From a virus, in IMG/VR virus record IMGVR_UViG_3300045988_147927, positions 1-64,000 of that record: DNA of 64,000 nt, one strand, 5' to 3'. The position numbers and the translations under genes are program-made. Under the pieces are notes generated by a model. It worked only from the letters and a program-made list of their open reading frames with translations. It did not search any database and was not told where the DNA came from. Shown here in pieces: positions 26,117-53,652 of this stretch; the first letter of the stretch is position 1; each line of letters begins with the position of its first letter.

Positions 26117-26167
26117 ATGAAAATACTACGTAGTGTTGTTGAGATGGAACATATAGATGGGATTTAT
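26117..26167 (+). CDS. tail-completion / virion-morphogenesis protein, exon 1 (17 codons)
   Basis: ATG after TAGAGGT; MKILRSVVEMEHIDGIY. It is followed by an in-frame TAA, which is the first triplet of the inserted element. Confidence 0.6.
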
Positions 26168-26616
26168 TAAGATGTCAAAATAACAATCATGAATTTATTC
26201 ATAAATATTTTTGACAGAATAGTAAGTCTGTAGGGAAACTTGCAGATAGTAGCAACTAGATGTTGTTCAACAAAGAAACTGAATTGCTGGGAACTCCTAA
26301 AGCTAGCTAAACTACAACGTGATATCTATTAATATGATATGGATGTGAATGTGGCGAAAGCAGAGAAAATTAGTTAGATGGTATAAGGTTAAACCCTAAG
26401 TACTGCGATAATGGATAATCAGCAGCCAAGCCCGTGAGGGAAGGTTCAACGACTATTCCTCGTGAGGGAAGTACATTCAAGCGAATGGAAGTGGTTTCGC
26501 CTAAGTCGTAAAAGTGATATGGATAAGATATAGTCTGTGCTTTATTGAAAGATAAAGATGCACGTAGTGGTGCTGGCTAAGTGGTAGCGTACTTAGTTGA
26601 ACGAGCGTTCTCTCAA
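26168..26616 (+). ncRNA. group I intron catalytic core (copy A)
   Basis: This stretch is more GC-rich than its surroundings. It contains AAGATATAGTC (26525-26535), which I recognise as the classical P7 3' strand and which pairs with GACTAT in GGTTCAACGACTAT. It has GNRA-capped hairpins (CCC-GTGA-GGG; TCTGTAGG-GAAA-CTTGCAGA). The hairpin CTTTAT-TGAAAG-ATAAAG (26540-26557) covaries with copy B. Confidence 0.7.
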
Positions 26617-26718
26617 AAATTTCATAGTTATAGTTATATATTTGATAATAGTTCCTATTAGTATTATAATAAAGATATTAGGATTCTTTATTCAGTATGA
26701 GAGGAGGTGTTATCATCT

Positions 26719-27810
26719 ATGAATAAAAGTTTTAAAGTTAGGATATATCCGACACAAGAACAAAAAATATTGTTAGAAAAGACCTTTGGTGCAAACAGGT
26801 TTGTTTATAATTACTTTCTCAACTTAAAAAGTAAGTTGTATGAGTTTTATAAAATAAGAATTAGTTATAATAATTCTTCTAAGATTCTAACTGAGTTGAA
26901 GAAACAAAAAACTTGGTTTAAAGAAGTTGATAGTGTTTCTTTACAACAAACACTTAGAGATTTAGATAGTGCGTATCAAAACTTTTTTAGTAGGAGATGT
27001 AAATATCCTAAATTTAAGAGAAAAGATGATAAAAACTCATATCGTACTAACTCTAATATTAAAATAGATAATTGGTATATAACAGTTCCTAAGGTGGGAA
27101 TGTTACATTTTAGAGATAAAAACAGATTTAGTGGTGTTACTAAAATTTATAATGTAACAATATCTAAGACATCTAGTGGAAAATATTTTGCTAGCATTTC
27201 AGCTGAGGTTGATATCGCAACTTTTGAGAAAAGCAATCAAAATGTAGGTATAGACTTGGGATTGAAAGATTTTGCTATTCTTAATACTGGAGAAAAGATA
27301 CATAATCCTAGAATATTAAAACATCTTGAAGATAAATACAGAAAGTTAGCTAAATCTGTTTCAAGAAAAGTTAAAGGTTCAGTTAATTATCAAAAAGCTA
27401 GGATTAAGTTAGCTAGGTTTCATGAATACATAGTTAATATACGAAAAGATTTTCTACACAAACTATCTACTAATATAGTTAAGACTTATGATATTATGTG
27501 TATAGAAAATCTCAATATTAGTGGTTTAATGAAAAATCGTAGATTAGAAAAATCATTTCAGAATGTTTCATTGTATGAGTTCATATGGATGTTAGAGTAT
27601 AAAGCTAAGTGGTATGGTAAGACTATTTCTAAAGTAGATAGATTTTATCCATCATCACAGTTATGTTCTAATTGTGGTTATAAGAATAAAGAAGTTAAAA
27701 ATCTTAGCGTTCGTGAGTGGGATTGTCCTGAATGTGGAACTATTCATGATAGAGATATAAACTCAGCAATTAATATTTTGCATGAGGGATTACGACTTTT
27801 AGAGATATAA
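26719..27810 (+). CDS. tnpB: TnpB (IS200/IS605 OrfB-type RNA-guided nuclease), apparently intact
   Basis: GAGGAGGTG RBS. N-terminal [13 protein letters not shown]. RuvC residues in [18 protein letters not shown] and [11 protein letters not shown]. Zinc ribbon CSNCGYKN...WDCPECG. Confidence 0.85.
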
Positions 27811-27817
27811 ATATATG

Positions 27818-27948
27818 AATATATAAGTATAACTGTGGGACACATGGGGATAGCCTATTGTCTGGTTGTAAGACTCTTTTAACATAGTATTAAAAGAGCG
27901 AACCATTGGGTAGGAACCTCACTGACTTTGAGTCATAGAGGATGTCAG
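27818..27948 (+). ncRNA. conserved 3'-terminal RNA module of element A (putative omega-RNA scaffold overlapping the intron 3' end)
   Basis: About 130 nt, nearly identical to 32876..33009 and clearly related to 42229..42359. Ends GAGGATGTCAG. The terminal hairpin TGACT-TTG-AGTCA covaries between copies. Confidence 0.65.
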
Positions 27949-28512
27949 ATTACTGTATCTCAACATATGTTAAAGCTAGGTTCTAAAAGGATACAAAAGG
28001 AGTTAGGGAGTCTTTATTATCAAGACTTCCTAATATTTATGGCTGTTACTTTAGCTAAAGAGTTTGAACGTGCTATAGATACACAAAGATATAAAGGTAC
28101 TAAGTGGGCGCCCTTGTCGATTTCTTATTTAACATATAAACAGAGAAAGAATTTATCTCTTAATATATGGGAGGCGACCGGTTATTTAAAGAATAGTATT
28201 ACTGTATTCAAGAAGTTTACTAATTTTATTGCAGTAGGTTTTCAACAAAAACAATATTATCCTAATAGTGGAGCACAGGTAAATATGGTTGCTCGGTATG
28301 TTGAGTATGGTACTAATAGGAATACAGTAAATGGTAAGAAAACAATGCCAGCTAGACCTTTATTTAGACCTATAGCTAGTTATGTTTCTAAACATATATC
28401 AAGGTATTATAAGACTTATCTAAAAGAGATAGATAAACTCAGAAATAAAAAGATACCATACTTATATCTTAGGAATAAGAGTGTTAAAAGGTCATCTAAA
28501 AATAGGAAGTAG
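27949..28512 (+). CDS. tail-completion / virion-morphogenesis protein (Mu gpG / HK97 gp10-like), exon 2
   Basis: KWAPLSISYLTYKQRKN...IWEATGYLKNSI...VGF...YVEYGT...MPARPLFRP matches the W-x-PL...sG-x-L-x-S...PaRpF pattern of tail-completion proteins. There is no start or RBS at the exon boundary. Confidence 0.65.
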   Translation: MTVSQHMLKLGSKRIQKELGSLYYQDFLIFMAVTLAKEFERAIDTQRYKGTKWAPLSISYLTYKQRKNLSLNIWEATGYLKNSITVFKKFTNFIAVGFQQKQYYPNSGAQVNMVARYVEYGTNRNTVNGKKTMPARPLFRPIASYVSKHISRYYKTYLKEIDKLRNKKIPYLYLRNKSVKRSSKNRK

Positions 28513-28531
28513 TTATATTAATTTACACAAC

Positions 28532-28560
28532 TTTACATAATATATGTTTTATGTTATATT
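28532..28560 (+). promoter_or_regulatory. sigma-A-type promoter candidate
   Basis: TTTACA, 17-nt spacer, TATATT. Confidence 0.5.
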
Positions 28561-28603
28561 AGATATGTAGAGTGGTTAGATTAATTTATAAGGTGTGGTA
28601 TAT

Positions 28604-29206
28604 ATGGATAAACAAAAATTAATTTTAGAAGAACTTAGAGGTGTAGAGAATATTAATGAATCTAGCTTAGGTAGATTATATCAACATATAGGTAAAGATT
28701 ATATTGTATTCATTACATCTGATAGACAGGCATTAGATGTTACTGAAAATAATAAACGTAGGAAAGAGTTAGAGAAGTATATTCGTTTAGCTGGTTTTGG
28801 GTATAATAAAGTAGTTGGAAATTATGTAGAGGAAGAGACTGGTGAACCTAAGAAAGAGAAGTCTTTTGTAGTTTATGGTAAAGATGAGGAAGAGATGCTT
28901 AAAATGTTTAAGCGTTTGGGTGAAAAGTATGAGCAAGACTCTATCTTATTTGTAGATTTAGATGGTAATGCTTATCTTTTATATACATATGGTAGCAAAA
29001 AGGGTACCAGTGATAAACTTGGTAATTTTCATGTAGGTATTGTAGGTGATTTTTATTCTACAATAGGTAAAAAAGCCTTTAGATTTGAGGTTAGTGAGTC
29101 TTACTATAAGGAAAGTTTTACTACATTTAGTGGTATGCTACACGAAAATTTCATGAAATTTGTTAATAAGTACGATGATTTTGATATTAGATGGGAAAAT
29201 AGATAA
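28604..29206 (+). CDS. hypothetical protein
   Basis: ATG 28604 after AAGGTG. The track ORF starts at GTG 28595. Confidence 0.65.
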   Translation: MDKQKLILEELRGVENINESSLGRLYQHIGKDYIVFITSDRQALDVTENNKRRKELEKYIRLAGFGYNKVVGNYVEEETGEPKKEKSFVVYGKDEEEMLKMFKRLGEKYEQDSILFVDLDGNAYLLYTYGSKKGTSDKLGNFHVGIVGDFYSTIGKKAFRFEVSESYYKESFTTFSGMLHENFMKFVNKYDDFDIRWENR

Positions 29207-29988: not shown

Positions 29989-29999
29989 TAATTGTAAAG

Positions 30000-30032
30000 A
30001 AAGCACATTTCATAAAAAGAAATGTGCTTTTT
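30000..30032 (+). terminator. rho-independent terminator
   Basis: 12-bp stem AAAGCACATTTC / GAAATGTGCTTT followed by TTTTT. Confidence 0.75.
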
Positions 30033-30160
30033 ATATATAAAATTTGAAAACATTAAAACAATAAATATCTATATTTACAAAAGATAATAGTATACAAAAG
30101 ATGGGTAAGTGAATAAATTATAATATATTATAAATTATCCGTTAAGGGGGATACTATTTA

Positions 30161-31948
30161 ATGGCTACATTAACAATGTTAAGTCCTGGTGTATACATGA
30201 ATGAGGTTGATAAATCTCAGTATATTACAGATTCCTCTACTTGTATTATAGGTATGGTTGGTGGTGCAAGGTTTGGGCCAGTTGGTGTACCTACACTTAT
30301 TACTTCTCAACAAGAGTTAGTCAAGACTTTTGGTGAGCCTGTTGAGGGTGAGCATGGGTTGTATAGTGCCATGATGGCTCTAGTTCATGCTAGTCAAGTA
30401 ATTTATACTCGTGTTGTAAGAGGTGGAACAAAAGCTACTGCTGGTGTTTTGGGAACTGATAAAATTCTTTATAAATCAGCTGTTATAGGTGATGCTAGTA
30501 ATGGGTTAAAGATTTCTCAAACTGCTTTAACAGGTGGCAAATTCTCCATTACTGTAAAAGATGCACAGGATGTTGAGAAAGAAAAGTTTGAGGATTTAAC
30601 ATTAACGTCCTCAGAAGAAAACTATGTTGAGGCTATTGTAAATTCTAAATCAAAACTAATCAGGGTTGAACTTCAATCAACTGGCGAAATTACTGCCAAG
30701 GATTTCACGTTAGGTGATACTGTTAAAGGTGGTAACACTGGTGCAAATGCACATGCTGGTAAAAAAGGAACTGATAAGATTGTGTTAGAATCAAAATATT
30801 TTGATTCTGAGTTAAATGGATGTTCCGCAGTATTTAGTGCTATGGATGATTTTACTCAAACATTTAATTTACATATCTTAGATGAGAATGGTAATGTTGT
30901 TGAGCAATTCAGTACTTTATCTTTAGACCCTAAATCACCTCGTTTTGTAGAGACTATTATTAATAATGGTTCTATTCGTGTTAATGCTAAGATGGATACT
31001 AATACATCTATTCAATATCATGAGGATACTTTAATCTTTAGTGGTGGTGATGATGGTATTTTAGGTATCACAGCACAAGATGTAATTGGTGATATTAGTG
31101 GTGGTGGTTTACAAAGTTTCTCTAACCCTGAGACAGTTACTATTGATGTATTGACTGCAAGTGGTTGGAGTGATTCCTCTGTAATTAAAGCTGGTTTACA
31201 TATCGTAGAAAATCGTGCAGATTCTATTTTTATTGTAGACCCACCTTTTGGCATGTCTGTTCAAGAGATGATTAATTGGTCTAATGGTAAGGGTTCATAC
31301 ACTAATCAAGGTGGTTTAGATACATCTTATGGTGCATTGTATTGGCCATGGTTACAAATTAGTGATAACTATACTAATAAAAATATATGGTTGCCGCCTA
31401 GTGGGTTTGTAGCTGGTCAGTATGCATATAATGATAAAGTTGGTTTCCCTTGGTTAGCACCTGCTGGTCTTAATAGGGGTAAAATCACAAAAGCTATTAA
31501 TACAGAATATTCACCTACACAGGGTGAACGTGATGCTTTGTATGGACATAGGAATGTTGTAAACTGTATTACTAATTTCATAGGACAAGGTATTGTAATA
31601 TGGGGTAACAAAACTTTACAACGCCAACCTACTGCATTAGATAGGGTAAATGTTCGACGTTTGATGTGTTTCTTAGAACGTAGTATTGCCGCTAAAACAA
31701 GGTATTTTGTTTTTGAGCAAAATTACGATGCAACATGGGAACGTTGGAAAACTCTTGTTGAACCTGTATTGATTAATGCTAAAAATAATGGTGGTTTGTA
31801 TGATTATAAAATTGTGTTAGATGCTACTGCTGAAGATTATGAAAATAATAGGATGCCTATTAGTATCTATGTTAAACCAGTTAAATCTGCTGAGTTTATT
31901 AGTTTGACATACAATATCATGAGTTATAGTGCTAGTTTTGATAAATAA
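30161..31948 (+). CDS. contractile tail sheath protein
   Basis: N-terminal LSPGVYMNEVD, size 595 aa, C-terminal ...WGNKTLQ...DRVNVRRL... pattern, and it is followed by the tube gene. Strong AAGGGGGA RBS. Confidence 0.9.
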   Translation: MATLTMLSPGVYMNEVDKSQYITDSSTCIIGMVGGARFGPVGVPTLITSQQELVKTFGEPVEGEHGLYSAMMALVHASQVIYTRVVRGGTKATAGVLGTDKILYKSAVIGDASNGLKISQTALTGGKFSITVKDAQDVEKEKFEDLTLTSSEENYVEAIVNSKSKLIRVELQSTGEITAKDFTLGDTVKGGNTGANAHAGKKGTDKIVLESKYFDSELNGCSAVFSAMDDFTQTFNLHILDENGNVVEQFSTLSLDPKSPRFVETIINNGSIRVNAKMDTNTSIQYHEDTLIFSGGDDGILGITAQDVIGDISGGGLQSFSNPETVTIDVLTASGWSDSSVIKAGLHIVENRADSIFIVDPPFGMSVQEMINWSNGKGSYTNQGGLDTSYGALYWPWLQISDNYTNKNIWLPPSGFVAGQYAYNDKVGFPWLAPAGLNRGKITKAINTEYSPTQGERDALYGHRNVVNCITNFIGQGIVIWGNKTLQRQPTALDRVNVRRLMCFLERSIAAKTRYFVFEQNYDATWERWKTLVEPVLINAKNNGGLYDYKIVLDATAEDYENNRMPISIYVKPVKSAEFISLTYNIMSYSASFDK

Positions 31949-31963
31949 GGAGGAGTATAATAG

Positions 31964-32524: not shown

Positions 32525-32537
32525 TAGTATCGTTTTT

Positions 32538-32568
32538 AGAGATGTAACATATGTTACATCTCTTTTTT
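32538..32568 (+). terminator. rho-independent terminator
   Basis: Perfect palindrome AGAGATGTAACAT/ATGTTACATCTCT followed by TTTTTT. Confidence 0.8.
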
Positions 32569-32631
32569 GTGTTATAATACTAATATAATATTAATATTAA
32601 TATTATATTTATGTTTAATAAGAGGTGTATT

Positions 32632-32871
32632 ATGGAAGAAAAACAATTAGAGGATTATCAAGTTAGGTTTATCGACGAGTATCGCACGTTATGTGAAAGG
32701 TGTTCTAAACTACATAGTATATTAGTTAAGTATGACGCTGGTACATTAGACTTTTCTCCTAAATGTAGTTCTGAGTTGCTAAGTAGTCAGTTAGAGTATA
32801 TGGAAGGTTATAAGTATATTCTAGAGGTTAGGGCTGAATTAGAAGGTATTGACTTGTCTAAGTATATGTAG
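32632..32871 (+). CDS. conserved phage protein of unknown function (crAss001_48-like pattern)
   Basis: ATG 32632 after AGAGGTG. The RCSKLHSILVKYDAGTLDFSPKCSSELLSSQLEYMEGYKYILEVRAELEGI pattern is one I recall from a widespread phage family. Confidence 0.5.
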   Translation: MEEKQLEDYQVRFIDEYRTLCERCSKLHSILVKYDAGTLDFSPKCSSELLSSQLEYMEGYKYILEVRAELEGIDLSKYM

Positions 32872-33009
32872 TATATTATAAGTATAACCGTGGGACACAT
32901 GGGGATAGCCTATTGTCTGGTTGTAAGACTCTTTTAACATAGTATTAAAAGAGCGAACCGTTGGGTAGGAACCTCACTGACTTAATTAAAAGTCAAGAGA
33001 GGATGTCAG
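32864..33009 (+). mobile_element. solo copy of the IStron 3'-terminal RNA module (orphan omega-RNA-like / right-end remnant)
   Basis: AAGTATAACCGTGGGACACATGGGGATAGCCTATTGTCTGGTTGTAAGACTCTTTTAACATAGTATTAAAAGAGCGAACCGTTGGGTAGGAACCTCACTGACTT...GAGGATGTCAG differs from 27818..27948 by only a few substitutions plus a changed terminal hairpin. No ribozyme core or tnpB is adjacent. Confidence 0.75.
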
Positions 33010-39696: not shown

Positions 39697-40053
39697 ATGC
39701 ATAAACCGTCATTAATAAAAACAGAAATAACACAGTCTTTTACAAGTAGACAGGATAAAATATCTCGATATTCTAAATTAAAGAGGTTAGTTAATCTCAA
39801 TGGTGATACATATATAGAAACACCTAACAAGTTTACAATAGAGGAGAGTAATAGGGATATTTACTACTCTGTTGAGAAAGGTTTTGAGGATAGATTAGAT
39901 TTAATATCTAATAAATTTTATGGTACACCGTTAATGTACTGGGCAATAGCTGTTATGAATCATATAGATAACCCTTTAGATGTTCCTGTAGGTGTTGTGT
40001 TGAGGATACCAGCCATTGAGTCCATTTACGATACAGGGGTGATTCAAATTTGA
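39697..40053 (+). CDS. LysM-like tail protein (P2 gpX / XkdP-like)
   Basis: FEDRLDLISNKFYGTPLMYWAIAVMNHIDNPLDVPVGVVLRIP is a LysM-type pattern, in the conserved position upstream of the hub gene. Confidence 0.6.
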   Translation: MHKPSLIKTEITQSFTSRQDKISRYSKLKRLVNLNGDTYIETPNKFTIEESNRDIYYSVEKGFEDRLDLISNKFYGTPLMYWAIAVMNHIDNPLDVPVGVVLRIPAIESIYDTGVIQI

Positions 40054-40541
40054 GTGATTACAAAGATAGTCTTATTACTAGAAATTTAAGTCCTCATCAG
40101 CCTCTATATGCTTTTATAGATTTAAGTATTGATGGGCATAATATATCATATTTCGGTAATAAAGAATTTAATGATTCAGTAATTAGTCTTAATGTGGAAA
40201 GAAAAGGTACTTCTAATCAAGATTTAGCTGGTTCTACTTTTGATATAGAGTTGTATGATGATACTGCTTTAAGAATAGAAGAGCTGTTAGCGAATACTAT
40301 ACCAGCAGGTTCAAATTTTAAGACCGCTAAAGAGTTGAAAGATACTGGTAATAAGGTTACTGATGGTAATATCGAGTGGAAACAACAAGAGGAAGCTAAG
40401 AAAAAAGAGCAGGCAGAGAAGGATAATACATATACAGAGGAAGATGAAAAGAAAGACCCTAATCATAAAGCAGGCACTAAAAAACAGTCTGGTGGTGCAA
40501 CTCAGTCTGGAAATGTTAGGTGTAAATATGGATGGTGTGAT
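40050..40541 (+). CDS. baseplate hub / late-control-D-like multidomain protein, exon 1 (164 codons)
   Basis: TTG start after AGGGGTG. Ends ...NVRCKYGWCD, then an in-frame TAA that is the first triplet of element B. Confidence 0.65.
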
Positions 40542-41028
40542 TAAATGTGCTACATATATTCATAGTTATAGTTATGAATAGGTATGTATATAGCACGTAT
40601 AGTCCATACATCTAGTGATAGGTGTGTGTCGAGTGGTAACACTCGGAGATTCATTGAATTGCTGGAAAGTCCTAAAGCTCAATTAACTACAACGTGATAT
40701 CTAATAATATGATATGAGCGTGAATGGTAGCGAAAGCAGAAAAAATAATTGAGATGGTATAAGGTGAAATAAAAGCTATATCACATATGATATAGTCCTA
40801 AGTACTGAGATAATGGACAATCAGCAGCCAAGCACGTAAGTGAAGGTTCAACGACTATCCTGTGAAGGAGTACGGCTCTAGTGAGTGGGTGAGAATCCCT
40901 TAAATGGAAGTGGTGAAGGTCTTTCAGATAGAAAGATTAAGATATAGTCTGTGCCTACATGAAAGTGTAGGATGCACGTAGTGGTGCTGGCTAGAAGTAG
41001 CGATTCTAGTTGAACGAGCATCCTCTCA
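40542..41028 (+). ncRNA. group I intron catalytic core (copy B)
   Basis: AAGATATAGTC at 40939-40949. GGTTCAACGACTAT. Hairpins CGAGTG-GTAA-CACTCG and CAC-GTAA-GTG. CCTACA-TGAAAG-TGTAGG (40954-40971) covaries with copy A. Confidence 0.7.
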
Positions 41029-41131
41029 TAGAGAGTTTTATGGTTTTATATATATTGAAATTAATCTCCTTTTGTAGTACATTAATAATATAATGTTTAT
41101 TGTTAATGATACGAAAGGGGGTGTAAATCTC

Positions 41132-42224
41132 GTGAATAAGAGTTTTAAAGTTAGGATTTATCCAAATCAAGAACAGAAAGTCTTGATTGATAAGACATTT
41201 GGATGTGCAAGATTCATATACAATTTTATGTTGAATCTGAAACAAAAATTGTATGAGTATCATAATATTTCTTTAGGTTTTTATGACCTATCTAAGATTC
41301 TTACAGAAATTAAAAGACATAAATTGTGGCTTAAAGAAGTTGATAAGTGGGCATTACAAAATGCTTTAAAAGATTTAGATAGTGCTTATAAAAGATTTTA
41401 TAATGGTGGTGGATTTCCTAAGTTTAAATCTAAAAAGCGAGATAAAAACTCCTATCGTACAAATCATAGAATACAGTTAATTGTAGATAATAAGAAAGTT
41501 AAAATTTCCTAAAGTTGGTAGTATTAAGTTCAGAGATAAAAGTAGATTTGATGGAATTACTAAAATTTATAATATCACTATTTCTAGGACATCTAGTGGA
41601 AAATATTATGCTAGTATATCTGCTGAGGTTAATATTGAACATTTTGAGAAAACCAATCAGAGTGTGGGTATTGACTTGGGATTAAAAGATTTCTGTATCT
41701 TAAATGATGGAACTAAGTTTGAAAATCCTAAATTTTTAGTTAGAAATGAAAAGCGACTTAGATTACTTCAAAAATCGTTAAGTCGCAAGATTTGTGGTTC
41801 TAAAAACTATGAAAAAGCTAAGATAAAGTTAGCTAAATTTCATGAGTATATTGTTAATTTTCGTAAAGATTATTTACATAAAATATCGTTATATTTGGTT
41901 AGAAATTATGATATTTTATGTGCAGAAACATTGAGAGTTAAGAATATGGTAAAGAATCATAAGTTAGCTAAATCAATTAGTGATGTTAGTTGGTATGAAT
42001 TTTGTAGGCAGTTAGAGTATAAGTGTCTGTGGTATGGAAAGAGATTTGTACAGATTAGTACATATTTTGCATCATCACAAATATGTTCTAATTGTGGGTA
42101 TAAGAATTCTGATGTTAAAAATCTCAATGTAAGAGAATGGACTTGCTCTAAATGTGGCAGTCATAATGAAAGAGATATCAATGCATCGATTAATATTTTG
42201 CATGAAGGATTAAGAATTATATAA
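41132..42224 (+). pseudogene. tnpB: tnpB with a single frameshift near nt 41490-41510
   Basis: GTG start after GAAAGGGGGTG. The N-terminal frame stops at 41510-41512 (...DNKKVKIS*). The continuation [45 protein letters not shown]...GIDLGLKDF is in the +1 frame. The downstream RuvC and zinc-ribbon motifs are intact. Confidence 0.75.
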
Positions 42225-42228
42225 TTTC

Positions 42229-42359
42229 AGTATATAGAACCATAGGACATATGGGGATAGCCTACTGTCATAGTGTAAGACGTATAGTGAATCTGTTTCA
42301 TTATGTGTAATTATTGGGTAGGAACTTCGTCACTTTAATGAGTGGTGAGAGGATGTCAG
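42229..42359 (+). ncRNA. 3'-terminal RNA module of element B
   Basis: GGACATATGGGGATAGCCTACTGTC...TTGGGTAGGAACTTCGTCACTTTAATGAGTGGTGAGAGGATGTCAG is homologous to 27818..27948. Confidence 0.6.
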
Positions 42360-45300
42360 AGAAAAGGTCAAGTAATAGAAGATATTTCTCTTATAGGGAA
42401 GGCTTTAAAATATACCTTAGCTTTTGAGGGGCCTGCTTTAACCCTAACATTAAATTGTGTGGCTGAGGCTGATGTTAAGACTACGCAAAAGTTGAATATG
42501 GAGTTTAGCGCTGAAAAGTTTGGGGGTAAGCCATCAGATATTGTTAGAGCATTATGTGAGAAAGCTCATATCAAGATTGGTCGGATTGTAGAAACAAAAC
42601 CAATCTTAGGTGATGATGGTAAACCTAAAGAGTTTAAGATGGGTTCTCGTACTATGAGGGAGTTTATTGCAGATGAGTTGTTAGAAAAAGCTACACCTAC
42701 TGATTCTGATAAACCTGGTTATAAATTCTTTTTGCAAGTTGTTGATGGGGAAGAGAAAGCATTTTTTGTTCCTAATGATATGTATGGTGATATGACTGTT
42801 ATCACATATAAGAAGATGGAAGAGACTACAACAACTACTACAACCACAACAACTTCTAATGATAAGCCTAGTGGGTTAAGTCCGTATCAAAAAGTTATGG
42901 GTGTATCTACGCCAATTCTAGGGCATACAAGAGATACTAATGTTAGTGTAGTAGGTGATGGTAAGGTTGTCTTTGTAGGTGATTTTAGAGTTAGAGATTT
43001 ACAAAATTCAGTACCTGATAATAAAGATTTAATGTATATCTATGATGATAAAGCTAATTATAGGTGGTTAAAGGATAACTTTGAATTAATAGAGTCTAAG
43101 TTACATATGGGGTATCGTGTATATTTTATGTTAGGGCATAATGATATAGACAATATTCTTAATTATGTTGAGTTTTATAATAAAGTAGCTAAAGAATTAG
43201 ATACAAAGGGTGTTCAAGTCTTTGTTGTATCTGTTTTACCTGTTTTCATGGGTAAAACAGATTTACATAATAGTAATATACAACGATTTAATAATGCTAT
43301 AAATCAGAATAGAGTTAGGGAATTGCATTATGTAAATATTTATGGTGATATTTTAAAGACTTTAAGAAGTAATAATACTAAACAAGATGGTATTTCTTAT
43401 AATAATAGATTAATGCAAGATGTATATAATAGAATAGTCTATTATCGTGAGGATTTAACTACATCTAAGAATATAGGTCTTAGTAGAAGTAATATTATAA
43501 ATGGGTTAGAATTTGTTACACATACATTACCGGATATGTTAAATACAAATTCATATCAAGGTAATGTTTCAGATGATGAGTATTATGGTAGTTTTATTGG
43601 TGTAGAGGAAGATACATCAAACCTAGTAGCATTAGCTTTAGCTGATGCCTCAAATGAGGATATAGCAAATTTACTATCTGAGATGACATTGTGGAAGATG
43701 TACTTAGAGGATGAGAATAATAAGGTATCTAAGGTAGGTATACTTGGTAGTGATAAGACTGAGAGTATCGATAAGTCTAAGTTACAGTTTGATAAAAATA
43801 AATTAGTTAATGCTTTCATAGATGTACTAGATAAGAAGGGATATACTAAGGAAGTTAAAGAGTATGTATCACTTGTAAATACATTTACTGATACTATTAA
43901 AGATAAGAAATTAGATACAACTGATAAATATGTAAATGCTTTGACTATGTTATCTAGCAAACTTGGTAAAGATAGTTCTATTTCAAAAACTATTACTAAT
44001 GTTGTTAAGGTTATTACTGAGAATAAAGATAAGGTTCTTAATGTTAAGGACAAAAAGATTTCTTATGATGATTTAGCTACAGATATAGTTTCTAAATTAC
44101 TACCTAATCAGAGTGCTAATATAAGTAAAATCACTGATAAGGTTTCATCTATTATGAAGTTAGATAGAGATAAGATAAAAAAAGGTGATTATTCTGAATT
44201 ACAAGGAATGTTAGCTAAAGAGCTAGGGATTAATGATAAAGATATTAATAAATATGTAGAGATAGGTAAGACTATATCTGAGATATATAAGAATAGGGAA
44301 TACTTTGACATAAAAGATTTAAGTCTAGTTTCTACTGATTTATTAAAGAGTGTTGTAGGGGAAGAAAAAGTAAAAAAAGTTGAGAAGTATATAGATACTG
44401 CTCAGAATTTATACAAGGCTTTTAGTGGTGCTAAAGATATAAAGGATATCAATAGTGCTGTAACTTCTTTGTCTGATGTGTTAGGTAAGAATACAAAAAT
44501 TAATAGGTATATAGATACTGCTAGGTCTTTTATGGATATCATTAATAAAGGTAGTGTTGGTACAGGCATCATTAATACTAATAATGGAATTAGTAAAATC
44601 ATAAATGATAGGTTGCCTAATATAGCACAGGCAGGTACTTTAGGTGGAGTTGTGGCATCTACTGTAGGTATATCACCAACTTCTACTAAAGAGGTGTTAA
44701 AGGCTTATGTTCCTAAAGGTGTTGATAGTGGTGTTACTAAGGTAAATGGTAGTCCTACTGATGGTACTAAGACAGGTCAATCATCTAATGTTACAAAAGA
44801 TGGGATATCAGATGAGGAAATGAAGAAAGGTGTTAGGTCTGTTACTTTTGGTGGTAAAAAGACTAAAATGGAGATTTGTGGTGAGTATGAGATTTACACA
44901 GGAAGACCTGATGGTAGGGTAATTAGTTTCTCACCAGAGTTTGAGAGTGATAATATAGCTACAAATAAAGTACCTACAAGTGCATTGACAATAGATGGTG
45001 TTAGGAATGAGATGCTAGAGTGTACTATTGAGGGTGTTGGTGGTGCTTTAGCTAGTGATGCTTATATGGAGAGGTCTAATCAAGAGGGGAGTAGTAATGT
45101 TGGTGTTGTGTTAGGTATGAGTGGTTCTTCTTTCAAGAATTTAGAATCATCAGCCGCAAGTATGTGGAGTCGATATTTTAGTTCTGTATATGGTGCTAGT
45201 TTAGAGATATTAGGCGATACTAGAGTTAAGTTTCAAGGACATATCAAGATAGCAGTTTATACTAAGTACGGTTTTTTACACCATACCAGTGGTATTTACA

Positions 45301-45854
45301 ATATACAAGGTATAACAGATTCTATTAATGGTGGTATGTTTACTACTACACTTGATTTACAGAAAAATAGTGATGAAGTTAAGAAAAAGAAAAAAGGAAA
45401 GGAAAAGAATAAAGTGGATGAAACAAAAGGACATGATGTAGGTGATGGTAAATACTGGGTTAAACAAAGTGGCAAGGTATCTTTAGAGGGTGCTATAAGT
45501 GGGATACCTAGTGCTTTAGATATGTTAGGTAAGTGGTTCTATGATAGGTCAGGGCATAAGTTGGTTGTTACCTCTGTTACTGATGGAGACCATGCATATG
45601 GTGAACACTGTCATGCTAATGGTTGGAAGATGGATGTCAATGATTGGTATGGGCCAGAGGGGTTACAAGGTGGATTAATTATTAATAGTGATGATACACC
45701 TGGCTCGATTTGTCTTGACTTTATTGAATATGGTAGGTCTATAGGTCTAGGTATGAATTTTGAGGGAGACCATATAGATATTCAAATGGATGGCACTGAG
45801 TGGAATGAAAATAATCCTGGTGGTGCTAAAGATAATGGTGGTTTTAGAGGATAG
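42360..45854 (+). CDS. baseplate hub multidomain protein, exon 2 (1164 codons) with SGNH-like and LAS/M15-like peptidase domains
   Basis: Begins RKGQVIEDISLIGKALKYTLAFEGPALTLTLNC (hub-type beta region). It has a poly-Thr linker (T9), then VVFVGDFRVRDL...YFMLGHNDI...VVSVLPV (SGNH-like), a long Lys-rich repeat region, and C-terminal SGHKLVVTSVTDGDHAYGEHCHANGWKMDV (zinc D,D-/L,D-peptidase-like). Confidence 0.65.
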   Translation, partial: RKGQVIEDISLIGKALKYTLAFEGPALTLTLNCVAEADVKTTQKLNMEFSAEKFGGKPSDIVRALCEKAHIKIGRIVETKPILGDDGKPKEFKMGSRTMREFIADELLEKATPTDSDKPGYKFFLQVVDGEEKAFFVPNDMYGDMTVITYKKMEETTTTTTTTTTSNDKPSGLSPYQKVMGVSTPILGHTRDTNVSVVGDGKVVFVGDFRVRDLQNSVPDNKDLMYIYDDKANYRWLKDNFELIESKLHMGYRVYFMLGHNDIDNILNYVEFYNKVAKELDTKGVQVFVVSVLPVFMGKTDLHNSNIQRFNNAINQNRVRELHYVNIYGDILKTLRSNNTKQDGISYNNRLMQDVYNRIVYYREDLTTSKNIGLSRSNIINGLEFVTHTLPDMLNTNSYQGNVSDDEYYGSFIGVEEDTSNLVALALADASNEDIANLLSEMTLWKMYLEDENNKVSKVGILGSDKTESIDKSKLQFDKNKLVNAFIDVLDKKGYTKEVKEYVSLVNTFTDTIKDKKLDTTDKYVNALTMLSSKLGKDSSISKTITNVVKVITENKDKVLNVKDKKISYDDLATDIVSKLLPNQSANISKITDKVSSIMKLDRDKIKKGDYSELQGMLAKELGINDKDINKYVEIGKTISEIYKNREYFDIKDLSLVSTDLLKSVVGEEKVKKVEKYIDTAQNLYKAFSGAKDIKDINSAVTSLSDVLGKNTKINRYIDTARSFMDIINKGSVGTGIINTNNGISKIINDRLPNIAQAGTLGGVVASTVGISPTSTKEVLKAYVPKGVDSGVTKVNGSPTDGTKTGQSSNVTKDGISDEEMKKGVRSVTFGGKKTKMEICGEYEIYTGRPDGRVISFSPEFESDNIATNKVPTSALTIDGVRNEMLECTIEGVGGALASDAYMERSNQEGSSNVGVVLGMSGSSFKNLESSAASMWSRYFSSVYGASLEILGDTRVKFQGHIKIAVYTKYGFLHHTSGIYNIQGITDSINGGMFTTTLDLQKNSDEVKKKKKGKEKNKVDETKGHDVGDGKYWVKQSGKVSLEGAISGIPSALDMLGKWFYDRSGHKLVVTSVTDGDHAYGEHCHANGWKMDVNDWYGPEGLQGGLIINSDDTPGSICLDFIEYGRSIGLGMNFEGDHIDIQMDGTEWNENNPGGAKDNGGFRG

Positions 45855-46714: not shown

Positions 46715-46853
46715 AGTGTAAAAAATTCATGTTAATTTTAGTATGGTATTCGATTATAAATATATGTGAGTGTTTAGAGTTGATTACTTTGTGTTTGGTT
46801 GATAAGTGTATTCTGTAGAAGTAGTTTTTATGATGTTTAGTGTATCTTCTTAC

Positions 46854-48235
46854 TGAAAGGTTGTTTTTATAGTATGTATATATCATAATCATCTTGTAAA
46901 AATAGAAAGTGGGGTGATAATAATGTACTTAACAATGAAGCAACAAGTAAAGCATTTAACTAAAGAAGAATATAATATTTTAAGAGAGTTGTGCAGAATA
47001 TCAAAGAATTTAACTAATCAAGCAATTTATAATATTAGACAATATTATTTTCAAGAAAAACAATATTTAAGGTATGAGTCTAACTATCATGAGTTAAAAA
47101 ATTCTGAGAATTATAAGTTGTTAAATTCTAATATGGCTCAACAGACCATTAAAGGTGTTGACTCAATGTTTAAGTCATTTTTTGCTTTAATTAGATTAGC
47201 AAAACAAGGTAAATATAGTTTTAAGCATATAAGATTGCCTAATTATTTACCTAAAGATGGGTATTCATGTTTAATTATTGCTCAGTTTAGTATTAAAGAT
47301 GGTAATGTTTTAATGATTCCATATTCTAATGCTTTTAATAAAAAATACAAAACAAGAGTTAGTGTTAGAGTTCCTAAAGTATTAGAAGATAAAAAGATAA
47401 AAGAAATTAGAATTATACCTAAATTTAATGCTAGGTTCTTCGAGATTCAATATACTTATGAAATTCAAGGAGAAAATATACAATTAAATACTAACAATGC
47501 ACTGGCTATTGATTTAGGGGTTAATAATTTGTGTACTTGCGTAACAAACATAGGCAAATCTTTTATTATTGATGGAAGAAAGTTAAAGTCTATCAATCAA
47601 TTCTTTAATAAGAGAAATGCGAGATTACAGTCCATTAAAGATAAGCAAAATATCAAGAAACAAACAAAGCAACAATATTTAATCTCTCAAAAGAGAAAGA
47701 ATAGAGTTGAGGATTATATCAATAAAGCATGTAGGTATATTATTAATTATTGTTTGTCTAATGATATTGGTATTTTAGTTATTGGTTATAATCAGTCATT
47801 TCAAAGTAAAGCTAATTTAGGGAATATAAACAATCAAACTTTTACTCAATTACCTTTTGGTAGGGTTAGAGATAAGTTAGATTGTTTATGCAAACGATAT
47901 AATATGAATTATATTCTACAAGAAGAATCTTATACGTCTAAAGCTAGTTTCTTTGATAATGATATTCTACCTATTTATAATGCGGATAATCCACAAACCT
48001 ATGAGTTTAGTGGTAAACGTATCAAAAGAGGTTTATACCAAACTAAAAATAATTATCGTTTTAATGCAGATTGTAATGGAGCATTAAATATTCTTCGTAA
48101 AAGTAAAGCTGTAGACTTAACAGTCTTATGCAGTAGGGGCGAACTGGACACGCCTAAAAGAATAAGGGTTTATTAGGATATCAAACTTCTTAATAAAATG
48201 ACTTTATGTTGTTTTTAGAATCATAGGATGTTCAG
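46854..48235 (+). mobile_element. TnpB-only IS200/IS605-type element C (second lineage)
   Basis: Sequence shared with 52250..53652 starts at TGAAAGGTTGTTTTTATAGTA, directly after TTAC (46850-46853), and ends ...GAATCATAGGATGTTCAG (48235). The flanks are unrelated between copies. Confidence 0.65.
46923..48176 (+). CDS. tnpB: TnpB-family protein, zinc-finger-less lineage
   Basis: AIDLGVNNL (RuvC-I Asp) ... LVIGYNQSFQSKANLG ... QEESYTSKASF ... FNADCNGALNILRK (RuvC-III Asp). 418 aa. Confidence 0.8.
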   Translation: MYLTMKQQVKHLTKEEYNILRELCRISKNLTNQAIYNIRQYYFQEKQYLRYESNYHELKNSENYKLLNSNMAQQTIKGVDSMFKSFFALIRLAKQGKYSFKHIRLPNYLPKDGYSCLIIAQFSIKDGNVLMIPYSNAFNKKYKTRVSVRVPKVLEDKKIKEIRIIPKFNARFFEIQYTYEIQGENIQLNTNNALAIDLGVNNLCTCVTNIGKSFIIDGRKLKSINQFFNKRNARLQSIKDKQNIKKQTKQQYLISQKRKNRVEDYINKACRYIINYCLSNDIGILVIGYNQSFQSKANLGNINNQTFTQLPFGRVRDKLDCLCKRYNMNYILQEESYTSKASFFDNDILPIYNADNPQTYEFSGKRIKRGLYQTKNNYRFNADCNGALNILRKSKAVDLTVLCSRGELDTPKRIRVY

Positions 48236-48263
48236 AAATATATGTTAGAAGGGGTGATGATTT

Positions 48264-48743: not shown

Positions 48744-48760
48744 AAAGGGGGTTTTACTTT

Positions 48761-50206: not shown

Positions 50207-50214
50207 GTGTTGTA

Positions 50215-51522
50215 ATGAAATTAGTTGATAAATTAAGAAATAATAAGTATATGACACTTATTCCGGATAAATACAAAGAGAATGAAAATTTTCTAGTATT
50301 TTTCCATCTACTAATAACTCAATTCAATATTAATGAAGAGAACATAAGGAATTTTACTAATTTAATTAATAATGATAAAGTACCTATGAAGTTTTTACAG
50401 AATCTAGGTGCATTTGTCAATTACTCCTATCAGCATTTAGCTAAGAATGATTTTAATCGTGAGTTGTCAATGCGTATGCATAATATATGGGAACAGAGGG
50501 GTAGTAAGAAGTCTATAGTTGATGCCGCCACGTATGGTGATAACATAGGGTGGGTAGGTGGGGATTTATGGATACCTGGTTATTATAAGCCATCAGCAAT
50601 AGCTGGGTTTGAGTTGCCAAGAGATAGGATTTTTAGACATAGTGTTTCTAAATTTTCTAGTACTCATGTCTTTGAAGATGGTAAGACATATATGCCTGGT
50701 GTTATATTACTCTCTGTACCTAATTTGACTAGGTTAGTAAAAAAACGTATATACGAGGTTACTCCTGCTGGTAGAAAGTATATATTTCAGATTGAATCTT
50801 CGTTCTTCCCTAATGATGGGATAGATAAATTAGATATAGGTTCTTATAATGAGTTGTCTTTTTATAAGAGAATGAGGGTATATCCTAAAGACATTAATGA
50901 AGAGAATCCACCATATGACAGGGATACAGATATAGATTTCACATATGAGATTGATATGATGGCTAATATGGATGAGTTTTTTAACATACTTATTCATAGT
51001 GAAAATAGAGGTAAGAAGTATCATAGTGGACATTTAACAAATATAACTAACTATGGGTATGAGATGAATATGTCAGCATCTATGTTACCAGTAAGTTTTT
51101 TATCTCATAAATTCCCTGTAAATGGTAATGATTCTCTACCTGACAATGCATATAAAAAATCTAAGACTGGTGAATATTTAGATACTTATAACAATAAAGG
51201 GATAGATTCTATTATGAGGGATATATCTCTTATCAATGATAATAATGTAGATTTAGATGTTCATAGAGAAGTTAGGTTGACTGCTATACGGAGTGAGAGT
51301 TCTTCTAGTAGGTCAGGGAATGGTAAGATGAGTGGTATAACATCTAGTATTGTTGATGCTTTTGTAGAATCTGAGCCTATATTACCTAGCGATTGTTTGT
51401 ATTCTGTTGATGATGTTGCTGATTTGAATGAAAATTGTTTTAGAGATGAATTTTATTCAAGTGGTGTACAGATAAATGGTGATAGAGAGTATCCGTGGAG
51501 ATTGTCTTTAACTCATATATAG
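50215..51522 (+). CDS. baseplate wedge / tail protein I-like
   Basis: Synteny after the J-like gene. N-terminal LIPDKYKENENFLVFFHLL...LQNLGAFVN pattern. Confidence 0.5.
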   Translation: MKLVDKLRNNKYMTLIPDKYKENENFLVFFHLLITQFNINEENIRNFTNLINNDKVPMKFLQNLGAFVNYSYQHLAKNDFNRELSMRMHNIWEQRGSKKSIVDAATYGDNIGWVGGDLWIPGYYKPSAIAGFELPRDRIFRHSVSKFSSTHVFEDGKTYMPGVILLSVPNLTRLVKKRIYEVTPAGRKYIFQIESSFFPNDGIDKLDIGSYNELSFYKRMRVYPKDINEENPPYDRDTDIDFTYEIDMMANMDEFFNILIHSENRGKKYHSGHLTNITNYGYEMNMSASMLPVSFLSHKFPVNGNDSLPDNAYKKSKTGEYLDTYNNKGIDSIMRDISLINDNNVDLDVHREVRLTAIRSESSSSRSGNGKMSGITSSIVDAFVESEPILPSDCLYSVDDVADLNENCFRDEFYSSGVQINGDREYPWRLSLTHI

Positions 51523-51581
51523 TTAGTAATATATAATATTGTAATATTTAATAGAGTGATAGTTGTGGAGGTATAAATACT

Positions 51582-52124
51582 TTGGCTATTTGTACATTAA
51601 AAGCTCATGTATCAAGAGCTTTAGATTTTTATAAAAAAGATGATATTTATTTTGCTATAGGTAAAGGTTCTCAATGGACTGCATCTGATTTAGAAAACTT
51701 TGATACCACTAGGGATTATGATATGAATCCACCAGTACCTAAAAATACTGATGATATGAAAGAGTTGATTGGTTTTAAAAAGTCTGAGTTTAAGGCTTTG
51801 GTAATTCAAGATGACAATGGTTCATTGGAGTATCGTGGCGTTAATTGGAGAATTGTTAGTCCTGATGATGCTATTACGCAAGGTGCTAGGTGGGTATATG
51901 TTTCTACTGAATTGTCTTATGATGAGTTGCCTACAGATAAACCATATCGTCAGGTTGGTATTTATACTGGACTAAGGAAGTCAGAGTCAGTACAGGGTAA
52001 TGTGTATAATTTATTACCTAATCAGGTTGTAGATAAAGGTTTGTTAGAAGTAATAGATTATCGTAAACCTGTATATAGGGATACTGATGTTAGGGAAAAA
52101 TTAAAAATTATTTTAGAATTTTAG
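51582..52124 (+). CDS. hypothetical structural protein
   Basis: 180-aa ORF; TTG start after GGAGGT. Confidence 0.6.
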   Translation: MAICTLKAHVSRALDFYKKDDIYFAIGKGSQWTASDLENFDTTRDYDMNPPVPKNTDDMKELIGFKKSEFKALVIQDDNGSLEYRGVNWRIVSPDDAITQGARWVYVSTELSYDELPTDKPYRQVGIYTGLRKSESVQGNVYNLLPNQVVDKGLLEVIDYRKPVYRDTDVREKLKIILEF

Positions 52125-52249
52125 CCGTGAGATGTGGATAGTAAAGGTTCTAGGAAACTATCACATAGTGGTAGTTCTTATACTATCCAACTAAGACATC
52201 TAATTGATTTTAGAAATATGGTTCTAAAAATGTCCTATAAGATTTTTAC

Positions 52250-53652
52250 TGAAAAGTTGTTTTTATAGTAAAAACATATTATAATCATCTTGTAATATAA
52301 TAGAAAGCGAGGTGATATTAATGTACTTAACGATAAAGCAACAGGTAAAACATTTAACTAAAGAAGAATATAATATTTTAAGAGAATTGTGTAGAATATC
52401 AAAGAATTTAACTAATCAAGCAATTTATAATGTAAGACAGCATTATTTTCAAGAAAAACAATATTTGAGATATGAAGCGAATTATCATGAATTAAAGAAT
52501 TGTGAAAACTATAAATTGTTGAATTCTAATATGGCTCAACAGACTCTTAAAAATGTTGATTCAATGTTTAAATCATTCTTCGCTTTGATTAGATTAGCAA
52601 AACAGAGTAAATACAGTTTTAAATATATAAAGTTACCTAAATATTTACCTAAAAATGGTTATGCAAATTTAATCATTCAAATGATTAATATTAAAGATAG
52701 CATAATAACACTTCCTGTTTCTAATGCTTTTAAGAAAAAACTTGATAGGAGACTTAAAGTTCAAATTAAAATTCCTAAGGTGTTAGAAGATAAAAAGATA
52801 AAGCAGATTCAAATTATTCCTAAATTTAATGCTAGGTTCTTCGAGATTCAGTATACATATGAGATTCAAGAAGAAGAAATTAAATTAGATATCAACAATG
52901 CACTAGCTATTGATTTAGGAGTTAATAATTTGTGTACTTGTGTTACTAACATAGGTAAATCTTTTATTGTAGATGGGAGAAAGTTAAAATCTATCAATCA
53001 ACTTTTTAATAAACAAAATGCAAGATTGCAGTCTATTAGAGATAAGCAAAATATTCTTAGACAGACAAAACAACAATTCTTAATCTCTCAAAAGAGAAAG
53101 AATAGAGTTGATGATTATATTAATAAAACGTGTCGATATATTATTAATTATTGTTTGTCTAATGATATTGGTACTTTAGTTATTGGTTATAATCCGTCAT
53201 TTCAAAATAAGGCTAATCTAGGGAAGAAAACTAATCAAACTTTTACTCAATTACCTTTTGGTAGGGTTAGAGATAAGTTAGAATATTTATGTAAACGATA
53301 TAATATTAATTATATTTTACAAGAAGAATCTTATACTTCTAAAGCTAGTTTCTTTGATAATGATGAGTTACCTGTTTATAATGCGGATAATCCACAAACA
53401 TATGAATTTAGTGGTAAACGTGTTAGAAGAGGTTTATACCAAACTAGAAACAATTATCTTTTTAATGCAGATTGTAATGGTGCATTAAATATTCTTCGTA
53501 AAAGTAGAGCTGTAGACCTAAGGGTCTTATGCAGTAGGGGCGAACTGGACACGCCTAAGAGAATAAGGGTTTCTTAGTAAACCAAACTTCTTAATAAAGA
53601 GACTTTTTAAGTTTCTTTTAGAATCATATGACTAAAATCATGTGATGTTCAG
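52250..53652 (+). mobile_element. TnpB-only IS200/IS605-type element D (second lineage)
   Basis: Starts TGAAAAGTTGTTTTTATAGTA directly after TTAC (52246-52249) and ends ...TGTGATGTTCAG (53652). Homologous to element C throughout. Confidence 0.65.
52321..53577 (+). CDS. tnpB: TnpB-family protein, zinc-finger-less lineage (paralogue of 46923..48176)
   Basis: Collinear with copy C, with most residues identical and the same motifs. 419 aa. Confidence 0.8.
   Translation: MYLTIKQQVKHLTKEEYNILRELCRISKNLTNQAIYNVRQHYFQEKQYLRYEANYHELKNCENYKLLNSNMAQQTLKNVDSMFKSFFALIRLAKQSKYSFKYIKLPKYLPKNGYANLIIQMINIKDSIITLPVSNAFKKKLDRRLKVQIKIPKVLEDKKIKQIQIIPKFNARFFEIQYTYEIQEEEIKLDINNALAIDLGVNNLCTCVTNIGKSFIVDGRKLKSINQLFNKQNARLQSIRDKQNILRQTKQQFLISQKRKNRVDDYINKTCRYIINYCLSNDIGTLVIGYNPSFQNKANLGKKTNQTFTQLPFGRVRDKLEYLCKRYNINYILQEESYTSKASFFDNDELPVYNADNPQTYEFSGKRVRRGLYQTRNNYLFNADCNGALNILRKSRAVDLRVLCSRGELDTPKRIRVS

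Follow-up and report, generated by a model that had tools for sequence, protein, structure and literature searches.

We analysed a 64,000-nucleotide (nt) stretch of viral DNA, positions 1 to 64,000 of IMG/VR record IMGVR_UViG_3300045988_147927 (hereafter the window), which carries five modules related to the RNA-guided nuclease TnpB. A preliminary description made from the sequence alone had listed them as two intron-tnpB chimeras, one orphan 3' module and two TnpB-only elements, and all five are present at or near the positions it gave. We call the chimeras IStrons A and B, the 3' module the orphan right end, and the TnpB-only elements T3 and T4. We identify all five as group A (IS605-type) IStrons or what remains of them after decay; IStrons are a known kind of selfish element in which a self-splicing intron is joined to a tnpB gene. 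The best explanation, to which we give a probability of roughly 0.6, is that such IStrons would have been seeded by the transposase TnpA and then spread by TnpB-guided homing between co-infecting phages.

The window is transcribed in one direction, with every gene on the plus strand, and its second half is a T4-like contractile-tail module. The source phage genome measures about 203 kb, and the part inspected here is 74 kb, namely the window plus 10 kb upstream. For comparison we used a family of related viral contigs in IMG/VR of up to ~213 kb (hereafter relatives); numbers beginning with L denote fetched loci.

Five TnpB-related modules in a phage tail region

The modules and the genes they interrupt are as follows (ORF, open reading frame; TAM, transposon-associated motif; aa, amino acids).

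26117-26167, + strand: exon 1 of the tail-completion/Neck1 gene, 17 codons (MKILRSVVEMEHIDGIY), with the TAM-like TTTAT as its 3' end
26168-27948, + strand: IStron A, a non-autonomous group A element with ribozyme, tnpB and guide-RNA right end; bounds taken from empty sites
26222-26557, + strand: group I intron catalytic core of IStron A (Rfam RF00028 Intron_gpI, 68.6 bits, E 2e-17)
26707-27810, + strand: tnpB1, 367 aa, intact (Pfam HTH_OrfB_IS605, OrfB_IS605 and Cas12f1-like TNB)
27820-27948, + strand: right end of IStron A, the putative omega-RNA scaffold, with the terminus GAGGATGTCAG
27949-28512, + strand: exon 2 of the tail-completion gene, continuing the frame of exon 1; presumed guide in the first ~20 nt (ATTACTGTATCTCAAC)
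32877-33009, + strand: orphan right end, a bare guide-RNA scaffold that shares 92% identity over 133 nt with the right end of A
40050-40541, + strand: exon 1 of a baseplate-region gene, with the 3' end ...TGGTGTGAT
40542-42359, + strand: IStron B, a non-autonomous group A element; exact bounds from the empty site in L001 and L002
40602-40971, + strand: ribozyme of IStron B (Rfam Intron_gpI, 75.1 bits)
41093-42224 (41093-41512 and 41664-42224), + strand: tnpB2 (Pfam TnpB), one gene with a single frameshift near 41508
42231-42359, + strand: right end of IStron B, a module like that of A
42360-45854, + strand: exon 2 of the baseplate-region gene, continuing the frame of exon 1; the two exons are contiguous in L001 and L002
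46758-48235, + strand: T3, a ribozyme-less TnpB element whose right end finishes GGATGTTCAG
46758-46767, + strand: 10-nt target copy in T3, followed by non-conserved filler, promoter and tnpB3
46914-48176, + strand: tnpB3, 420 aa (Pfam TnpB)
52112-53652, + strand: T4, a ribozyme-less TnpB element whose right end finishes GTGATGTTCAG
52125-52311, + strand: IStron 5' remnants in T4, matching full IStrons, with the catalytic core deleted
52312-53577, + strand: tnpB4, 421 aa (Pfam TnpB)

The two full elements, A and B, interrupt structural genes in frame. BLAST with the ribozyme core and both right-end types found no further copy in the early half of the window, which the preliminary description had called free of such elements.

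The modules belong to group A IStrons

Group A IStrons carry the signature of insertion by a Y1-type TnpA after TTGAT, ATTAT or TTTAT, with a 3' end in TCAG (PMC4227781). Their definition also includes a T as the terminal exon base, an IA2 Twort-like ribozyme and the frequent lack of TnpA (PMC4227781; PMC10690162; PMC13565253). The window elements follow TTTAT (A), GTGAT (B) and ATTAT (T3 and T4), the last 5' exon base being T, and they terminate in ...GGATGTCAG (A, B and the orphan right end) or in ...GTTCAG (T3 and T4, a TCAG end). Elements in the relatives follow TTTAT, CTTAT or TTGAT, and those of the T3 family NTTAT. A and B also keep the 5' hairpin of the left end (LE). We regard it as almost certain that the window elements are IStrons. 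The preliminary description had left this family unnamed; it is a described class, already reported in Clostridium botulinum phages.

Both ribozymes exceed the Rfam Intron_gpI gathering score of 50. Rfam scans 28-64 kb long, at gathering and E-value thresholds, report neither intron, and scans of 571 nt detect both. Since the short scans pass the threshold, we regard the whole-window misses as a filter artefact, in which speed filters hide the introns. With the introns overlooked, as happens in a default Rfam scan, the genes interrupted by A and B would be annotated as truncated or split. In an alignment of six IStron 5' regions, 28 of the 119 predicted pairs show compensatory changes. The only ORF within these introns is tnpB; they hold no GIY-YIG, HNH or LAGLIDADG gene. 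Apart from one 175-nt stretch, we found no GenBank phage DNA matching the tail region. That stretch belongs to the ribozyme core and matches Staphylococcus Silviavirus phages; in phage Romulus it lies just past a truncated 'capsid protein' coding sequence, and by our own reading it would be an unannotated capsid-gene intron.

The right-end module (~130 nt, ending GAGGATGTCAG) occurs three times in the window: after tnpB1, after tnpB2 and as the orphan at 32877. In an 11-sequence alignment of the right-end RNA, 10 of 23 pairs are compensatory, and in empty alleles the TAM directly adjoins the flank sequence that would serve as guide. The right end thus looks like a structured omega-RNA scaffold with a flank-derived guide. 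The orphan copy has no tnpB and begins 6 nt past the stop of a crAss001_48-like ORF (32611-32871). It is found also in L041 and, up to the contig end, in L042, the sub-lineage contigs that reach this position; its flank AAAGTGTATATCTTCT has no other occurrence among the fetched loci.

TnpB1 aligns over its full length with the ISDra2 TnpB structures 8H1J and 8BF8 (E 1e-90), and its motifs GIDLG, CIENL and HDRD (D, E, D) and two CxxC pairs align with those of ISDra2-type TnpB. TnpB1-like genes are present in 435 GenBank phage records. Its closest bacterial relatives are only 40-56% identical and the GenBank phage proteins at most 48.5%.

Empty alleles restore the interrupted genes

The preliminary description had called for a survey of presence/absence polymorphism in related phages. 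Such polymorphism is evident: at four of the five window positions, relatives that are 96-100% identical in neighbouring proteins have precise empty sites.

The site of IStron A is occupied in L041 and empty in L037, L038, L039 and L042, where a single uninterrupted ORF joins exon 1 to the sequence from 27949 onward. The spliced product matches the PHROG 'tail completion or Neck1'. With a slash marking each boundary, the junctions read ...GGGATTTAT/TAAGATG...GGATGTCAG/ATTACTGTATC in the occupied allele and ...GGTATTTAT/ATCACTGTATC in the empty one, and empty alleles continue as TTTAT/ATCACTGTATCTCAAC or TTTAT/ATAACTG.... The 3' splice site at the right end of IStron A is also where the guide begins. 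On its left, IStron A brings along a foreign flank of 58 nt. The window and L041 have the same exon 1 (100% identity), which differs by 40% from that of the empty alleles; the wider flanks of these alleles show 92-98% identity.

The gene holding IStron B lies between LysM-like and gp5-like genes, and its spliced product would have 1,328 aa. Here the junctions are ...TGGTGTGAT/TAAATGTG...GGATGTCAG/AGAAAAGGTC, and L001 and L002 read ...TGGTGTGAT/AGAAAAGGTC as one ORF, with a perfect TAM and a 22-nt target. In comparison with L001, the flank has 8 substitutions in 200 nt on the left and none in the next 600 nt.

In group A terms, the exon junctions TTTAT/TAAGATG...GTCAG/exon 2 (A) and GTGAT/TAAATG...GTCAG/exon 2 (B) correspond exactly to the empty alleles, and L001/L002 and L037-L039/L042 are identical to exon 1 plus exon 2 at the junction. 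Splicing of both genes is predicted from this identity. The preliminary description held that insertions are either silenced by splicing or placed precisely between genes; the junctions of A and B agree with this, and T4 does not, since its ATTAT lies 13 nt inside the upstream BW3TFN ORF (51582-52124).

Might some of these insertions or empty sites be unreal, with repeats having produced chimeric contigs? Several contigs do break inside elements (L003, L046, L071 and L024). Against such an artefact, the junctions of IStron A (in L041) and of T4 (in L011 and L092) are seen again in other, independent samples and assemblies, tnpB3 is identical on three contigs, and the protein of window ORF 222-1238 has an identical copy encoded on the 202,909-bp ENA metagenome contig ERZ27262861:k119_93537. 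Empty sites, moreover, restore intact ORFs to the nucleotide. We consider misassembly a very improbable source of the pattern.

T3 and T4 represent a second IStron family with a divergent TnpB

TnpB3 and TnpB4 are 84% identical to each other and barely alignable to TnpB1 and TnpB2. Their family (the 420-aa family) is represented by 39 loci in IMG/VR and by more than 120 clusters at >=83% identity in a metagenome protein collection, all on contigs of at most 277 kb; the named clusters are Caudoviricetes. It is apparently a divergent clade confined to phage-sized contigs. Most copies are complete IStrons, in which the ribozyme lies ~450 nt ahead of tnpB and the element starts as TTAT/TAAGATGC...CGTGATTTTAATCGTGAG at its 5' end.

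In T3 and T4 the ribozyme core is deleted or absent, and there is no conserved LE upstream of the promoter. T4 retains homology to full IStrons only in the 5' region (nt ~134-203 of the extracted stretch) and in ~125 nt before tnpB, and T3 shares only the promoter region with other copies. Because of the shared promoter and the 5' fragments in T4, we interpret both as ribozyme-less derivatives of this second family.

T3 follows ATTAT (46753-46757) between the gp5-like and gp25-like genes and is absent in L001, L002 and L003. Its left part (46758-46875) includes ~85 nt of filler that match neither full IStrons nor other loci, except that the motif TTTAGAGTTG recurs in the left filler of L075; this motif resembles the T4 target. 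The idea that T3 splits a T4-type late promoter (TATAAATA) was dropped, as the motif occurs 21 times against 26 expected and is not enriched.

T4 is absent in L001 and L003. A 13-nt target duplication re-creates the last codons and the stop of the BW3TFN ORF. Duplications of 10-24 nt at the left ends of T3, T4, L075 and L008 were first taken as target site duplications arising from a TnpB cut, an explanation we rejected for T4. The 'extra' CCGTGAGATGT belongs to the IStron itself, as the right arm of its 5' hairpin, and the target shares with the loop of that hairpin an ATTTTA microhomology in which the left junction falls; the junction therefore stems from imprecise recombination or deletion. 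At the right junction the window has an extra TTAG, as expected of a short-homology join. At the left junctions of T3 and T4 (46753-46775 and 52107-52135) the TAM precedes a stretch of 10-13 nt that agrees with the guide of the same element and lies directly before the tnpB promoter. So short a match probably does not suffice for cleavage, and we speculate that TnpB might bind there.

Five alleles that appear empty at the T4 site (L028, L013, L034, L009 and L021) are probably not truly empty. They keep 11 nt, TCGTGAAATGT, matching the 5' hairpin arm, and are probably footprints of deletion between AATGT repeats. These alleles mismatch the guide from position 15 onward.

Insertions are polymorphic, decay is common and tnpB is constrained

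Beyond the window there are dozens of further polymorphic insertions across the phage family, and most elements with both flanks sampled have 23-39 empty-site relatives each. Among the fetched loci the 420-aa family occupies ~27 sites and the 367-aa families at least 9, each insertion lying beside its TAM. Counted together, elements of these families occupy well over 35 sites, each directly 3' of TTAT/TGAT and with TCAG as the terminus. Copies at the same site are 90.7-100% identical and those at different sites 81-91.5%. The T4 copies of the window and L011 are 90.6% identical between flanks that are 76.6% and 81.5% identical, within a diverged backbone. Both share the same imprecise left junction, which indicates that a single T4 insertion crossed between lineages.

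Decay intermediates are common, as seen from the frameshifted tnpB2, the solo right end, ribozyme-less copies, L044 (a 367-aa family copy without ribozyme), L149 and the footprint alleles. L149:363-1000 is a mini-IStron that keeps the ribozyme and right end with tnpB cut to its last 64 codons.

For the 420-aa family, the tnpB copies analysed were those whose right end and flank could be recognised; all 33 are intact, and their median dN/dS is 0.15, ribozyme-less and TnpA-less copies included. This purifying selection argues for a function of the protein. One such function could be domestication: a phage would keep TnpB and guide units, especially T3, T4 and the orphan scaffold, as weapons to cut competitors without the insert, much as free-standing endonucleases act in marker exclusion. 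Intron endonucleases do mediate phage competition (PMC11620839), and T3 and T4, which have no conserved LE and are not mobilisable as insertion sequences (IS), still have an intact and constrained tnpB and guides that match empty alleles of close relatives. Purely selfish homing, however, predicts identical data. The frequent decay products (frameshifted tnpB2, solo right end, mini-IStron, ribozyme-less copies and footprints) also speak for a selfish life cycle, so we judge domestication improbable.

TnpA is absent from the window and present on other viral contigs

A Pfam scan detected no Y1_Tnp or Resolvase domain in the window. On the plus strand it covered reading frames of 70-520 aa and, among the nine larger ORFs, seven; on the minus strand it covered all ORFs of at least 100 aa. 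The TnpB ORFs and exon 2 of the gene at 27928-28512 were included, the sheath gene at 30161-31948 was not. Likewise, a phage IS200-type Y1 TnpA used as tblastn probe had no match in the window, and no TnpA was seen in the 10 kb upstream. As a positive control, this probe recovered the TnpA that accompanies TnpB1-like genes in Clostridium and Megamonas loci. The absence of TnpA from the window, noted already in the preliminary description, makes its elements non-autonomous members of their families. About 75 other element copies were examined, and none has room for tnpA.

Autonomous copies exist elsewhere. Twelve viral contigs (L175-L186, e.g. L178:3440-5528) combine a ribozyme, a 133-aa Y1 TnpA, TnpB and the same right-end terminus (...GGTGAGAGGATGTCAG), at no fewer than four sites and after (T/C/G)GAT. 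Their TnpB is ~55% identical to TnpB1 and TnpB2. The HUH motif of TnpA is intact in 10 of the 12, as HIH in L178, and reads HIR in L175 and L176, where the enzyme may therefore be inactive. At least four of the 12 contigs also carry the window's 420-aa IStron family.

The wide spread of distinct sites, each beside a TAM, requires transposition, and the combination of the TTAT/TGAT and TCAG signature with TnpA-bearing IStrons on 12 contigs makes TnpA acting in trans the best explanation of new sites. TnpA probably seeds them rarely.

Could transposition alone suffice? Under that explanation a Y1 TnpA would move the non-autonomous IStrons in trans, presence and absence would reflect independent insertion, descent, loss and phage recombination, and TnpB would have no role in inter-phage spread, at most restoring copies after excision. 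Such restorative homing is the established role of TnpB (PMC10055086). Every insertion abuts a TnpA-type target motif, and full IStrons retain the LE hairpin. The autonomous copies, on viral contigs partly shared with the 420-aa family, provide a possible source of TnpA, which also sits beside TnpB1-like genes in Clostridium and Megamonas genomes. Several observations, however, are not those expected if transposition acted alone. TnpA is missing from the window and the 10 kb upstream, and nine near-complete contigs of the window's clade (199-213 kb) have no close TnpA match. Copies at different sites are never near-identical (the maximum is 91.5%), and tnpB is strongly constrained even in copies where TnpA or the ribozyme is missing. 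T4 has no LE hairpin, yet it has the same imprecise junction in diverged backbones and is less diverged than its flanks. We therefore consider transposition alone unlikely, though less so than domestication.

Proposed seeding by TnpA and spread by TnpB-guided homing

We favour a combined pathway, in which a Y1 TnpA acting in trans would seed new sites, with the contigs that share the 420-aa IStron family as the autonomous source, and splicing would keep the interrupted genes functional. During co-infection, TnpB with its flank-derived RNA would cut the element-free allele beside the TAM, and repair from the occupied genome would copy the element with some of its flanking DNA, which is homing. 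Elements would later decay through a frameshift, by losing the ribozyme, by shrinking to a solo right end or through a deletion that leaves a footprint.

Four observations can be read as signatures of homing: the apparent co-conversion of flanks (the foreign flank of IStron A and the tract beside IStron B), the lower divergence of T4 relative to its flanks, the imprecise T4 junction common to two lineages and the constraint on tnpB. We consider the homing step itself probable, though far from secure, and conclude that TnpB-guided breaks, or at least recombination, appear to spread and maintain the elements among co-infecting phages. The preliminary description had proposed spread by homing and recombination rather than by transposition. 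Its first half is in keeping with these signatures, and its second half finds no support, given the TTAT/TGAT and TCAG motifs and TnpA on the 12 contigs.

A number of points weigh against this combined explanation. The tracts resembling co-conversion could stem from ordinary mosaic recombination among phages. The nearest empty alleles of IStron A have one synonymous mismatch at guide position 3, and IStron B, owing to the frameshift in tnpB2, would be unable to home on its own. As for the source of TnpA, the nine near-complete clade contigs mentioned above have no close match to it, and when window proteins were compared by tblastn with the TnpA-bearing loci, no backbone match was informative. 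The nuclease activity of the 420-aa TnpB is an assumption. The protein has no sequence match in the PDB; its Pfam match to OrfB_IS605 is clear (E 2e-29) and that to the TNB domain weak. Read by eye, TnpB3 and TnpB4 have AIDLG and NADCNGALNI and no zinc-finger cysteines; the canonical RuvC-II Glu position reads IGYN, and a Glu follows later in QEESYTSK. This shifted Glu presumably resembles the 'rearranged catalytic site' of some TnpB and Fanzor proteins.

Relation to known IStrons, homing introns and TnpB systems

The description of IStrons in 2014 already covered copies in C. botulinum phages (PMC4227781), and the splicing, transposition and homing functions of IStrons have been dissected experimentally (PMC10690162). 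IStrons and TnpB homing are thus already established in bacteria and plasmids, and TnpB genes are common in GenBank phages. The window elements share with the group A IStrons of Clostridioides difficile (CdISt1; Tourasse et al., 2014, PMC4227781; Zedaveinyte et al., 2023, PMC10690162) the 5' IA2/Twort-like ribozyme and the downstream, same-strand IS605-type tnpB, insertion after TTGAT, ATTAT or TTTAT with T as the last exon base, and a 3' TCAG that serves as 3' splice site and also closes the omega-RNA scaffold. TnpA is missing from most copies, as it is from all eight CdiIStrons. Unlike those IStrons, the window elements are carried by a family of ~200-kb metagenomic phages with T4-like tails rather than by a bacterial chromosome, and they comprise two TnpB families (367 and 420 aa), the latter very divergent. 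CbISt3 and CbISt4 of the C. botulinum phages c-st and D-1873 are likewise phage-borne, but they belong to group B (IS607-type), whereas the window elements are Y1/IS605-type.

Group B IStrons also occur in relatives of the window phage (L004, L059, L061:7562-9577, L062, L066 and L077; also L008 and L069). Their junctions are TGGG/TAACAAAACTG...ATCGTAAC/GG (CGTAAC/GG), and they are ~2.0 kb long, with intron-less versions of 1.45 kb as well. One phage family thus harbours both groups, which the 2014 survey found together in no single species.

The elements also resemble the mobile group I introns and free-standing homing endonuclease genes of T4-like and Twort/SPO1-like phages (td/I-TevI, seg, mob), in that they lie within essential phage genes, are silent through splicing, and display presence/absence polymorphism, co-conversion of flanking markers and decay. 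Their ribozyme core resembles that of the presumed intron in the Silviavirus capsid gene. They differ in their nuclease, an RNA-guided TnpB with flank-derived specificity instead of a protein-only HNH, GIY-YIG or LAGLIDADG enzyme, and in that a transposase can move them to unrelated sites. Autonomous IS200/IS605 elements, for their part, carry TnpA and conserved subterminal hairpins at the left and right ends; the window has no TnpA, and T3 and T4 have no conserved LE.

The closest parallel in mechanism is 'non-restorative homing' by TnpB, a TnpA-less spread at orthologous sites between co-resident DNA molecules. A review proposes homing of TnpA-less IStrons as well as non-restorative homing into co-infecting phages (PMC13565253), and it cites TnpB-dependent, TnpA-independent spread of IS605 in a plasmid population. 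The phage case in that review is theoretical, unlike the comparative evidence presented here. What the present analysis adds is a phage family with two group A families and with group B IStrons in relatives, a natural series of occupied, empty, decayed and footprint alleles, and a divergent TnpB clade with no solved relative. Since the material includes autonomous, TnpA-less, ribozyme-less and solo-RNA copies as well as footprints, it could allow the relative roles of transposition and RNA-guided homing in viruses to be measured. The 420-aa TnpB, compact, divergent and seemingly abundant on viral contigs, is a candidate nuclease.

More tentatively, and at somewhat less than even odds, we propose a broader picture. 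The clade's IStrons and their ribozyme-less descendants may persist without a resident transposase, as RNA-guided homing elements between co-infecting phages, with the full cycle of invasion, decay and footprint visible in natural populations. The 420-aa TnpB would then be an uncharacterised clade with a relocated Glu and no zinc finger and, in T3 and T4, a free-standing RNA-guided counterpart of seg and mob of phage T4.

Neighbouring genes and other features of the window

The tail module further contains, by profile matches, gp19-like tube, T4_baseplate-family, gp25-like and gp5-OB-like proteins, a BW3TFN-family protein, a DUF4815 protein and a tape-measure protein with a lysozyme domain. 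Three other features were noted.

30161-31948, + strand: sheath gene, identified by tblastn; its best GenBank relative is from a Streptococcus phage (41% identity)
16636-18957, + strand: DnaB-like helicase ORF with an intein splicing domain before DnaB_C (Pfam Intein_splicing, E 3e-7)
28595-29206, + strand: S-adenosylmethionine lyase family ORF (PF23780, 69 bits)

The Intein_splicing match in the helicase ORF scores 30.7 bits, under the curated cutoff of 35.8; from it we infer that the early half also hosts a selfish element, though not of the TnpB type. The lyase-family ORF lies within the tail module, between the tail-completion gene and the next structural gene.

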